Positions 1,190 to 52,902 of a stretch of 58,576 bases of DNA are shown here, piece by piece. The stretch spans positions 1-58,576 of the IMG/VR virus record IMGVR_UViG_3300028287_000004. The stretch is one strand, 5' to 3'. The DNA comes from a virus. Lineage: Duplodnaviria; Caudoviricetes. The translations under genes were made by a program, and so were the position numbers. The notes below the pieces were generated by a model. That model saw only the letters and a list, made by a program, of their open reading frames with translations. It was not told where the DNA came from and did no database searches. Numbering within the stretch: the stretch's first letter is position 1; each line of letters starts with the position of its first letter.

Positions 1190-1615
1190 CCTGCGGCTAA
1201 GCCACAATTGCCCTGTTGCCAGGACAACTGCAAAAAATTATGGATACATGCCATAGCTTCATCGCCTCTGTTTATGAGCTAGTAGCCAGAAACTACGGGG
1301 TCGGTTGGCGATTCCCCCTTCACTCAGTACTGCGTCTTTCGACCCAACGGCACCTAATAATGTCTAAACAGACAGAACATTATGTAAGTCGATAGTGTTA
1401 TAGTAACCTATCATCGGTTATAAAATTGTAAAACTGGTCAACCACGAACCTTTAGAGCCGTGGCTGTTATGTGTTATGAATACTCTTTTTTGTGGTTAAC
1501 GAGAAGATTGCGGGAATTCATCCCCACTAGTCCAACGGCAACAGTATCTTTAAATACTGGCAGATTCAATCCCGAGTTGGCAACCCAACTAACAGTTCCA
1601 CTATGTCTGATATAT
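1190..1615 (-). ncRNA. Candidate large structured non-coding RNA (family not recognised)
   Basis: No ORF of 60 aa or more; higher GC than flanks; about 10 consecutive hairpins with G-U pairs and GAAA/GCAA tetraloops on the minus strand. Confidence 0.7.
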
Positions 1616-1701
1616 TAGCATTTGTCATTGTGTATTAGCCTTGTATGTGCTATGTGTTAGTTTTATATTAGCTTTGTAATAGTTTTCAATAGAGCCTGAG
1701 T

Positions 1702-1709
1702 TATTTATA
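1702..1709 (-). promoter_or_regulatory. T4-type late promoter TATAAATA pointing into the non-coding structured region
   Basis: Exact TATAAATA on the minus strand just after the gp51-like stop. Confidence 0.6.
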
Positions 1710-1715
1710 TTAGCA

Positions 1716-1946
1716 TTAGAGTATTGGCACACCTGCCTGTTTACTCATTTCATAGTTGTCTTTTATAATATCATTAATGTGAGCAATGTGCCCAACTGGC
1801 ATATCATGGAGTTCAGAAATACTTACCCCACCTCTCATATACCAAGTTAACTTTAACATATTCTTGTGTACGTTGTCAAGCTCTTTTTTGTATTTTTCTG
1901 TTTTTTCTTGAATTTCTGCTGGCGATGCTGTAATTAACCAGCCATG
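1716..1946 (-). CDS. gp51-like baseplate hub assembly protein; -1 frame extension of gp26 (or 47 aa from ATG 1859)
   Basis: Hand translation HGWLITASPAEIQEKTEKYKKELDNVHKNMLKLTWYMRGGVSISELHDMPVGHIAHINDIIKDNYEMSKQAGVPIL*; WYMRGG..S.SE..DMP pattern and position right after gp26; absent from the ORF track. Confidence 0.75.
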   Translation of the reverse strand, partial: HGWLITASPAEIQEKTEKYKKELDNVHKNMLKLTWYMRGGVSISELHDMPVGHIAHINDIIKDNYEMSKQAGVPIL

Positions 1947-50478: not shown

Positions 50479-50506
50479 AAAAAAGGGAGCGAAAGCTCCC
50501 TTTTTT
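50479..50506 (+). terminator. Intrinsic terminator
   Basis: AAAAGGGAGC-GAAA-GCTCCCTTTT followed by a T run. Confidence 0.9.
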
Positions 50507-50519
50507 ATGCAAAAAACAC

Positions 50520-50548
50520 TTGACTTTGCTAAATAGATGTAGTAATAT
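50520..50548 (+). promoter_or_regulatory. Sigma70-like promoter for the replication/recombination operon
   Basis: TTGACT-17-TAATAT. Confidence 0.6.
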
Positions 50549-50589
50549 AAGTACAGGCTCTAAGAGGATGTGTTGATATTCATTAAGGC

Positions 50590-50653
50590 ACAAAAACTAA
50601 AGCTAATATAAATCTAACATGGCTAACATAGGCTAATATAAAGGAAAACTACA
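50590..50653 (+). promoter_or_regulatory. Repetitive A-rich gp32 leader (putative autogenous translational operator)
   Basis: AGCTAATATA / GGCTAACATA / GGCTAATATA repeats directly before the SD. Confidence 0.6.
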
Positions 50654-51786: not shown

Positions 51787-52902
51787 ATGGCAAAAGCATT
51801 TGATGCGTCAAAGTTTCGTAAAAGTATTACAAAAGCAGTCCCAGGAATGTCTGTGGGCTTCCGTGATCCGAATACATGGATCTCAACAGGTAACTACTGT
51901 CTAAACAAGTTAATCTCAAATGACTTCTATAAAGGTATTCCACTTGGTAAAGTGACAGTACTTGCAGGCGAGTCTGGTGCAGGTAAATCATATATTGCAT
52001 CTGGTAACATTATTAAGAATGCACAGGATCAGGGTATCTTTGTGGTTCTAATCGATAGTGAGAACGCACTAGATGAAAGTTGGTTACACGCACTGAATGT
52101 AAGCACAGACGATGATAAGCTACTGAAATTGAATGTAGCCATGATTGATGATGTTGCTAAGATTATTTCAGACTTTATGACAGACTATCGTAAAGAGTAC
52201 ACAGATACACCTGACGAAGAACGTCCTAAGGTTCTGTTCGTACTTGATAGTTTGGGTATGATGTTGACACCAACAGATGTTAATCAGTTCGAAAAAGGTG
52301 AAATGAAAGGCGATATGGGTCGTAAGCCCAAAGCACTATCAGCACTTGTTCGTAACTGTGTAAACATGTTTGGTGATTTCAATGTAGGTATGATTGCAAC
52401 GAATCACACATACGCATCACAAGATATGTTCGATCCAGATGATAAGATTTCAGGCGGACAAGGCTTTATCTATGCATCAAGTATTGTTATCGCTATGCGT
52501 AAACTGAAACTGAAAACAGACGAGAACGGTGTAAAGACATCTAAAGTGCATGGTATTCGTGCCGCATGTAAAGTTGTTAAGACACGTTATTCAAAACCGT
52601 TTGAAAGCGTACAAGTAGAAATTCCATATGAAACAGGTATGTCACCTTATTCAGGTCTGCTTGAATTCTTTGAAGCAAAAGGTCTACTAGTCAAGCAAGG
52701 TAATCGTCTGAAGTATACTACCAAATCTGGTGAAGAAATTCTTGAGTTCCGTAAGAACTGGACTGATGAAAAACTAGACCAAGTTATTGCAGATTGGAAT
52801 ACAGAAGACTTAGATGCAGAAGTAAATGGCCTTGAAGCACTAGAAGTTGATGCTAACGGAGAAATCATCCACGATGAAAACTCTGAACTTAATGAGGTGT
52901 AA
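51787..52902 (+). CDS. uvsX: RecA-like recombinase UvsX
   Basis: ISTGNY.LN, AGESGAGKS, LIDSE, VLDSLG, TNHTY, SGGQG. Confidence 0.93.
   Translation: MAKAFDASKFRKSITKAVPGMSVGFRDPNTWISTGNYCLNKLISNDFYKGIPLGKVTVLAGESGAGKSYIASGNIIKNAQDQGIFVVLIDSENALDESWLHALNVSTDDDKLLKLNVAMIDDVAKIISDFMTDYRKEYTDTPDEERPKVLFVLDSLGMMLTPTDVNQFEKGEMKGDMGRKPKALSALVRNCVNMFGDFNVGMIATNHTYASQDMFDPDDKISGGQGFIYASSIVIAMRKLKLKTDENGVKTSKVHGIRAACKVVKTRYSKPFESVQVEIPYETGMSPYSGLLEFFEAKGLLVKQGNRLKYTTKSGEEILEFRKNWTDEKLDQVIADWNTEDLDAEVNGLEALEVDANGEIIHDENSELNEV

Follow-up and report, generated by a model that had tools for sequence, protein, structure and literature searches.

A CUAAUA repeat array shared by the leaders of a structured RNA and of the gp32 mRNA in an uncultured marine jumbo phage

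The DNA analyzed here, called the window, is the entire IMG/VR record IMGVR_UViG_3300028287_000004 (58,576 bp; completeness estimate 16%), and the phage is a member of an uncultured marine jumbo phage clade whose nearest cultured relatives are those of the PA5oct group. Its minus strand carries a large structured RNA preceded by an A-rich 5′ leader, and its plus strand carries the gene of a gp32-family single-stranded DNA-binding protein (SSB) with a leader of its own. The original prediction proposed that the first leader mimics the second and that the same protein, most simply the phage SSB, loads on both. The question raised by this locus is what the two leaders have in common and which factor would read it. 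A single operator acting at the RNA level on the two transcripts, with gp32 itself as the most likely binder, is the answer tentatively favored in this work.

The 21-mer at 1675-1655 (minus strand) and its counterpart at 50599-50619 (plus strand) were identical at 20 of 21 positions, as had been claimed, and two matches with three or fewer mismatches were observed against 0.02 in shuffled sequences. The string GCTAATATA was found five times in the 58.6-kb window, every copy lying inside either the RNA-leader or the gp32-leader cluster, when 0.85 copies were expected from shuffles and none of 100 shuffles reached five. All six chains of the form CTAAYA-N2-30-CTAAYA were likewise located within the two clusters (1.74 in shuffles; one of 100 reached six), together with seven of the 18 GCTAAYA sites of the window. 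The bare GCTAAYA 7-mer stood at background window-wide (18 found, 19.4 expected), which speaks against the observation; the motif signal is one of clustering and of a longer unit.

The unit shared by both leaders was aRR-CUAAUA-UA, in the sense orientation and in three to seven repeats with a spacing of ~9-12 nt. Its flanks were alike in the two sets of leaders: position -3 was mostly A, +6 mostly T and +7 mostly A, and purines occupied -2 and -1 in all of the gp32-leader sites and in about 8 in 10 of the RNA-leader sites. The commonest spacing was 9-12 nt at both loci, and wide gaps were more frequent in the RNA leaders. The repeats had been described as lying in unstructured A-rich sequence, which was borne out by the folding predictions (RNA leader, 94 nt, -4.2 kcal/mol, z +0.87; gp32 leader, 61 nt, -4.0 kcal/mol, z -0.30), according to which both leaders are probably unstructured. 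The two regions had also been said to begin with the same strings, TAATATAA followed by CAGGCTCTA. Both strings were present at both loci (Table 1); the sharing of CAGGCTCTA, however, was limited to the window subclade (the window, L132, L107, and L122), since the other relatives lacked it at the RNA locus.

The relatives of gp32 were collected by a protein-guided scan of viral contigs, from which the best 80 of at least 599 (65-89% identity) were used; the gp32 identities sampled were thus 65% or higher, plus two cultured genomes (PA5oct and RaK2). Units were found just before the Shine-Dalgarno (SD) sequence in 80/80 of these loci. The window and 73 loci with full cover gave 42 distinct 110-nt leaders, each of which held three to five units (42/42), mostly 9-12 nt apart. 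The start of the last unit preceded the AUG by 18-22 nt in 38 of these leaders, and in the other four a further unit directly adjoined the AUG. Seven loci cut short upstream (L007, L009, L017, L020, L035, L043, and L046) stood outside the leader counts, and units were present in their remaining sequence. The relatives of the RNA were retrieved with an invariant 20-mer, which gave 39 viral loci; one of these, L120, was dropped as a chance match, its flanks being unrelated and GC-rich and the covariance model giving no match there. Four to seven CUAAYA units, 380-490 nt upstream of the 20-mer, were present in the window and in all of the 32 related loci with full upstream cover (600 nt; 19 distinct leaders), six loci cut short upstream (L098, L101, L108, L113, L123, and L130) standing outside these counts. 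The sequence between the units of the RNA leaders diverged freely across relatives.

Furthermore, joint conservation of the two clusters, the test called for in the original prediction, was observed in six of the six contigs that hold both loci (the window, G001, G004, G006, G007, and the contig of L069/L117). Two ~342-kb genomes of relatives, G001 (342,607 bp, complete) and G006 (342,181 bp, 92% complete), were compared in full. Chains of three or more units were found in G001 in the RNA leader, in the gp32 leader and in one third place; this third CTAATA chain, also present in G004, runs antisense to the beginning of a short open reading frame (ORF) and was taken as chance. In G006 such chains were found in the RNA leader only, the gp32 leader holding a CTAATA pair with CTAACA between. 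Isolated unit pairs elsewhere numbered 12 against 8 with a reversed-pattern control in G001, and 9 against 3 in G006. In both genomes the sense-strand intergenic chains are confined to the RNA and gp32 leaders.

These comparisons bear on the possibility that the similarity is a functionless leftover of recombination between the loci. Only the window subclade has the 20/21 match and shares CAGGCTCTA between the loci, which resembles a local exchange; nevertheless, units have been kept at both loci down to 65% gp32 identity while the sequence between them diverged, and this explanation is considered extremely improbable.

Table 1. Coordinates of the features discussed in the text (window numbering).
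Feature	Position	Strand	Remarks
GCTAATATA	1619-1611, 1672-1664, 1714-1706	minus	RNA-leader cluster
GCTAATATA	50602-50610, 50632-50640	plus	gp32-leader cluster
TAATATAA	1712-1705	minus	originally given from 1713, one base off
CAGGCTCTA	1698-1690	minus	RNA leader
TAATATAA	50543-50550	plus	gp32 locus
CAGGCTCTA	50554-50562	plus	gp32 leader
RNA 5′ leader, A-rich	1716-1607	minus	CUAAYA units; predicted unstructured
RNA-leader CUAAYA units	1714-1708, 1672-1666, 1660-1655, 1639-1633, 1619-1613	minus	
Candidate mini-ORF, 20 codons + UGA	1628-1566	minus	ATG 1628-1626; UGA of invariant GGGAUUGA 1568-1566
Structured RNA body, ~404 nt	1606-1203	minus	covariation; helix 1 pairs 5′ and 3′ ends
Helix 1	1605-1602 with 1206-1203	minus	closes the molecule
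Invariant 9-bp hairpin, GCAA loop	near 3′ end of RNA body	minus	
Second conserved element	1136-1075	minus	covarying ~7-bp stem; conserved loop with tandem G-A potential
Terminator-like hairpin of upstream gene	50479-50506	plus	hairpin and T-run (scan listed minus strand)
gp32 promoter, sigma-70-type	TTGACT 50520-50525, 17 nt, TAATAT 50543-50548	plus	from scan
gp32 mRNA leader, ~105 nt	50549-50653	plus	four CUAAYA units in last ~55 nt
gp32-leader CUAAYA units	50603-50608, 50614-50619, 50623-50628, 50633-50638	plus	
gp32 SD, AAGGA	50641-50645	plus	directly 3′ of last unit
gp32-family SSB gene, 354 aa	50654-51718	plus	PF08804, 28.5 bits (cut-off 26.8)
UvsX/RecA-like gene	51787-52902		after gp32; RecA family
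T4_baseplate-family gene	ORF 2812-1934, extended frame to 1716	minus	PF12322, 67.5 bits
SegE-like GIY-YIG endonuclease gene	604-1041	minus	follows the RNA in the window

At the gp32 locus, the hairpin and the promoter upstream of the gene were kept in relatives wherever the upstream sequence sufficed. The segment between the promoter and the repeats was divergent among relatives and folded weakly; the 5′ segments of 22 gp32 leaders, folded singly, gave -0.4 to -7.5 kcal/mol (z -1.7 to +1.1), and no consensus structure was obtained with RNAalifold from 15 diverse leaders. Stems picked out by eye in these leaders begin near the -10 box, and their inclusion in the RNA depends on the start site. 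Among cultured phages, the closest SSB was that of the PA5oct group (59.6% identity over residues 1-264), followed by Atu_ph07, RaK2, and others, and the gp32 region gave distant matches only (megablast and blastn).

At the RNA locus, a sigma-70-type promoter (TTGATA/TTGCAA, 17 nt, TATACT/TATAAT) was found between the preceding stop codon and the units in four lineages (L102, L116, L127, and L131). Since it lies directly upstream, the units of these four would form the 5′ end of the RNA's own transcript. The promoter of these lineages is borne on an insertion of 40-50 nt, and the other lineages are without a promoter there.

The leader runs into a candidate mini-ORF. An SD-like GG block is located ~10-14 nt upstream of its ATG. 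The penultimate unit precedes both, and the last CUAAUA unit falls inside the frame, which spans the 5′ strand of each of helices 1 and 2 and the whole of helix 3. An in-frame ATG followed by an open frame of 19-23 codons was present in 21 of 22 sequences, the frame being broken in L127; in L118 two frame changes cancel each other. By an eye count over seven lineages, the distance from the ATG codon to the last unit is 0, 3, 6, or 9 nt. Over a fixed span, the mini-ORF frame was stop-free in 10 of 20 sequences, and neither of the other two frames was stop-free in any of the 20. These features are suggestive of translation; many of the compared sequences are close relatives.

Units placed in this way might simply serve in cis as translation enhancers or ribosome standby sites (for example, for ribosomal protein S1) that raise initiation on gp32 and the mini-ORF to a very high level, with no specific repressor involved. 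A protein such as gp32 is required in large amounts, and the units are A/U-rich, predicted to be unstructured and just upstream of the SD at both loci. A general enhancer should nevertheless lie ahead of further strongly expressed genes too, the major structural genes among them, when only two loci per genome have chains, and G occupies -2 and -1 in about a quarter of the RNA-leader units, so that a pseudo-SD pairing is not conserved. A role of this kind is held to be decidedly unlikely.

The body of the RNA was defined by covariation. RNAalifold on 22 sequences gave 74 pairs, 27 of them with changes on both sides; in the 20 distinct rows, 98.2% of the cells were paired, against 33-42% when the partners were slid, and the double-change pairs were 27 against 1-5. 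Invariant G-U pairs identify the minus strand of the window as the transcribed one. The structure was clear only through covariation, single-sequence folding of the whole 679-nt gap giving a z of -1.5. The body was 73% identical in G001 and G004, the gp32 of both being 69% identical to that of the window. No Rfam 15 family reached the gathering score in the window, and none matched the RNA at E ≤ 10 in the window or at E ≤ 1 in L091, L140, and L103; weak snoRNA-like matches were rejected, their positions being within the GIY-YIG ORF or on the opposite strand. ARAGORN detected no tRNA or tmRNA in the window. The invariant 20-mer was absent from a one-genome-per-species collection of bacteria and archaea, and the RNA locus had no match among cultured phages by megablast and blastn. 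The locus was found, at half or more of its sampled words, in 13 marine or seawater DNA runs from seven studies (a possible source run being left out).

The helix that closes this body starts 7 nt after the last unit, which would suit the units as ribonuclease processing or stability signals that release the mature RNA and trim or stabilize the gp32 mRNA without a dedicated binder. The T4 gene 32 mRNA is described as the most stable of T4 mRNAs, with RNase E processing at -71 (PMC3014915), which would also favor this role. Against it, the unit is no obvious fit to the preference of RNase E, and a cleavage site needs no repetition at a fixed spacing; the proposal is rated as very improbable.

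The operator put forward here is argued for by the placement of the units. Since they stand on the sense strand of two transcripts, are unstructured, reach the ribosome-binding site (RBS) of gp32, flank the start codon of the RNA and occur nowhere else, they would act at the RNA level; and since their regulator would have two targets, one of which is the gp32 mRNA, the binder would most simply be gp32 itself. The same restriction to two targets that include the gp32 mRNA makes a general regulator or a general enhancer unlikely. That the units act on RNA, that gp32 binds them and all that would follow downstream is inferred, and the chance that one operator serves both transcripts with gp32 as its binder is put a little below even.

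Mechanistically, one trans-acting factor would coat the repeats on both transcripts. gp32 would be this factor when in excess over the available single-stranded DNA, following the precedent of T4, whose gp32 in excess over single-stranded DNA binds the gene 32 operator cooperatively (PMC535899, PMC3014915). As the last unit abuts the SD of gp32, its occupancy would block initiation, resulting in autogenous repression. On the RNA, where units flank the SD-like block and the AUG of the mini-ORF, occupancy would exclude ribosomes and so allow the 5′ domain to fold, or else would protect the RNA, and the two transcripts would compete for the factor. The R-loop origin, primer RNA or SSB sponge named in the original prediction would be speculative consequences.

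A more elaborate version would make the RNA a read-out of free SSB. Excess gp32 would coat the CUAAUA arrays on its own mRNA and on the RNA, which would switch gp32 synthesis off, keep the mini-ORF free of ribosomes and allow helices 1-3 to form and the RNA to become active, with the competition by the RNA setting the threshold of repression. This version is unlikely. If true, a second target, or decoy, occurring in nature would be known for the first time for an autoregulatory circuit of the gp32 type, and a new class of large phage RNA would be tied to replication status.

Several points weigh against gp32 acting through an RNA operator. Lineage-specific co-variation of the unit flanks between the loci was weak, the longest string shared within a genome being the row maximum in three of four genomes, by 1-5 bases. 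One evolutionary event may account both for the presence of the units throughout the marine clade and for their absence from PA5oct and RaK2. A counterpart of the T4 nucleation element was not established, no conserved pseudoknot or well-supported 5′ hairpin being found in the gp32 leaders, for which an explicit pseudoknot search was not made. A crisp motif with ~10-nt spacing is unexpected for a sequence-independent SSB. The T4 gp32 site size is ~7 nt. Moreover, ~10 nt equals one DNA helical turn and would also fit a protein that binds double-stranded DNA, and the unit includes TAATAT, a hexamer that also forms the -10 box upstream of gp32.

The last two points lead to the alternative that the units act as DNA, either as iteron-like sites (an origin or a transcription roadblock) that face the same side of the helix and bind a double-strand or single-strand DNA-binding protein, or as -10-like elements where the polymerase holds or pauses. 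Direct repeats with a spacing of ~9-12 bp are what an iteron-type origin would show, and the origin suggested in the original prediction would fit. The first RNA-leader unit in the window, TGCTAATAT (1715-1707, minus strand), reads as an extended -10-like string, and the CAGGCUCUA after it is identical to the text following the gp32 -10 box, in the window subclade only. The units are, however, always on the transcribed sense strand, downstream of any recognizable promoter and up to the SD; they are absent upstream of other genes, and no initiator-like gene adjoins either locus among the neighboring ORFs scanned. On balance, a DNA role is thought improbable.

The specificity of the motif would suit a dedicated RNA-binding protein better than an SSB, and the same RNA operator could have another reader, whether a phage regulator devoted to RNA binding, a protein that partners the structured RNA or a protein of the host, with gp32 as a target only. 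The unit is rich in UAA, and a selection paper on RB69 RegA reportedly names UAA triplets in its title; besides, most genes of these ~340-kb genomes are without a known function. No RegA-family gene (PF01818) was detected, however, in G000, G001, G006, G007, or PA5oct (T4 control, 2.3e-75), and two motif clusters per genome, instead of many targets, are unlike repression of the RegA type. Two genomic targets that include the gp32 mRNA form the pattern of an autogenous regulator, and neither locus has a candidate gene linked to it. Another reader is possible and yet rather unlikely, and gp32 remains the preferred binder.

In the cultured relatives PA5oct and RaK2, no CUAAUA units were found in the gp32 leaders, and a covariance model of the 3′ domain found no copy of the RNA, G001 being found with the same model at 6e-39. 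A promoter and a 5′ hairpin do precede the gp32 genes of PA5oct (L141 840-955) and RaK2 (L142 760-880), whose leaders are A-rich and unstructured. An autoregulatory layout like that of T4 may thus be general across the wider jumbo group.

Regarding expression of the RNA locus, contigs from RNA libraries (X15-X18, three studies) cover it in close relatives, although such contigs cannot prove transcription, ends or abundance. One 643-nt contig from X18 corresponds exactly to 1202-1847; its adapter letters at 1202 lie a single base outside helix 1, which is a weak hint of the 3′ end of the RNA; an X17 contig extends to 1865, so that no 5′ end can be read.

Profile matches identified four proteins in the window, namely the gp32-family SSB (PF08804), the UvsX/RecA-like protein, the T4_baseplate-family protein (PF12322) and the SegE-like GIY-YIG endonuclease. 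The baseplate gene precedes the RNA leader and has an A AAU UUU heptamer (1955-1949, minus strand) before its stop, the -1 frame ending at 1716 and adjoining the leader. The same heptamer and extended frame were present in G001 (L091 ~2215), and the extension of ~75 codons, ending in ...PIL, was conserved among the aligned relatives; this looks like a programmed -1 frameshift site. Inside the extension, a sigma-70-like promoter was noted at 1879-1850 (minus strand; TTGACA, 18 nt, TAAAGT with TG), with a counterpart in G001 (L091 ~2140-2105; TTGACA, 18 nt, TACAAT), and one RNA-library contig ends at 1847. It may be a coincidence, as the letters also encode conserved residues. A relative of the baseplate gene with 34% identity (L089) was without RNA or cluster; its contig is a fragment without gp32 and hence uninformative.

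Two other candidates were discarded. The T4 late-promoter core TATAAATA, present at both ends of the RNA locus (1709-1702 and 1185-1178, minus strand), was not enriched (7 against ~13 expected by a rough base-composition estimate). Pairing of the leader units with the RNA body (a UAUUAG stretch near 1350), as judged by eye, was not conserved in relatives.

Downstream of the RNA, the second conserved element ends with an invariant hairpin (1088-1075, minus strand), after which most relatives have a U-run. The element could serve as the terminator of the transcription unit, as a small RNA or as a protein site. The gene after the RNA in G001 encodes a PDDEXK endonuclease (L091 807-1337, minus strand) unrelated to the GIY-YIG gene of the window, and the element is kept although these nuclease genes are non-homologous. 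Free-standing nuclease genes appear to use the site after the RNA as a landing place.

The closest known system is the gene 32 operator of T4 (also of T2 and RB69), which consists of a pseudoknot and, 3′ of it, a less structured stretch of more than 40 nt that contains UUAAA/UAAA repeats and the RBS (PMC535899, PMC3014915). The gp32 leader of the window shares with it the position 5′ of an SSB gene, unstructured A/U-rich repeats over more than 40 nt that reach the RBS and a promoter-proximal segment upstream of the repeats. It differs in the unit, CUAAUA(UA) at ~10-nt spacing, and in that no supported pseudoknot was found in the gp32 leaders of the marine clade. The likeness to T4 drawn in the original prediction stands for the general layout, the unit being different. 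A further difference is the second array, borne on a non-coding RNA, since the copy at 1716-1607 precedes the RNA and not gene 32. The gp32 leader appears to resemble a T4-type operator with a different unit. The literature searched, which left most subscription journals outside its coverage, yielded no second target of a gp32-type operator and no SSB RNA sponge in a phage. How T4 gp32 distinguishes its own mRNA from other nucleic acid is called an open question (PMC535899), and the clade supplies a sharply defined repeat that is borne by another natural RNA besides the gp32 mRNA, which would allow a direct test of gp32 specificity.

As for RNAs that sequester a protein, small RNAs of the CsrB/RsmZ type titrate their protein via multiple copies of a motif that overlaps the RBS of the target. 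The RNA of the window similarly holds several copies of a motif that reaches the RBS of the target mRNA and could compete for a repressor. Unlike in CsrB/RsmZ, the motifs here are found in unstructured RNA and not in hairpin loops, and they take up ~100 of ~500 nt, the rest being a covarying multi-helix fold unlike a simple sponge. Since this body covaries and the units fill only the first ~100 nt, the ~400-nt body would have a function of its own.

Finally, in leader-peptide RNAs (attenuators and dual-function RNAs) a short ORF overlaps the first helices. The mini-ORF also overlaps the first helices, and its translation and their folding would exclude each other; in contrast to those RNAs, the body is far larger than an attenuator and no conserved gene follows it. 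If one factor reads both leaders, the expression or folding of this strongly covarying ~400-nt RNA, which belongs to no Rfam family, would be wired to the replication and recombination machinery of the phage.

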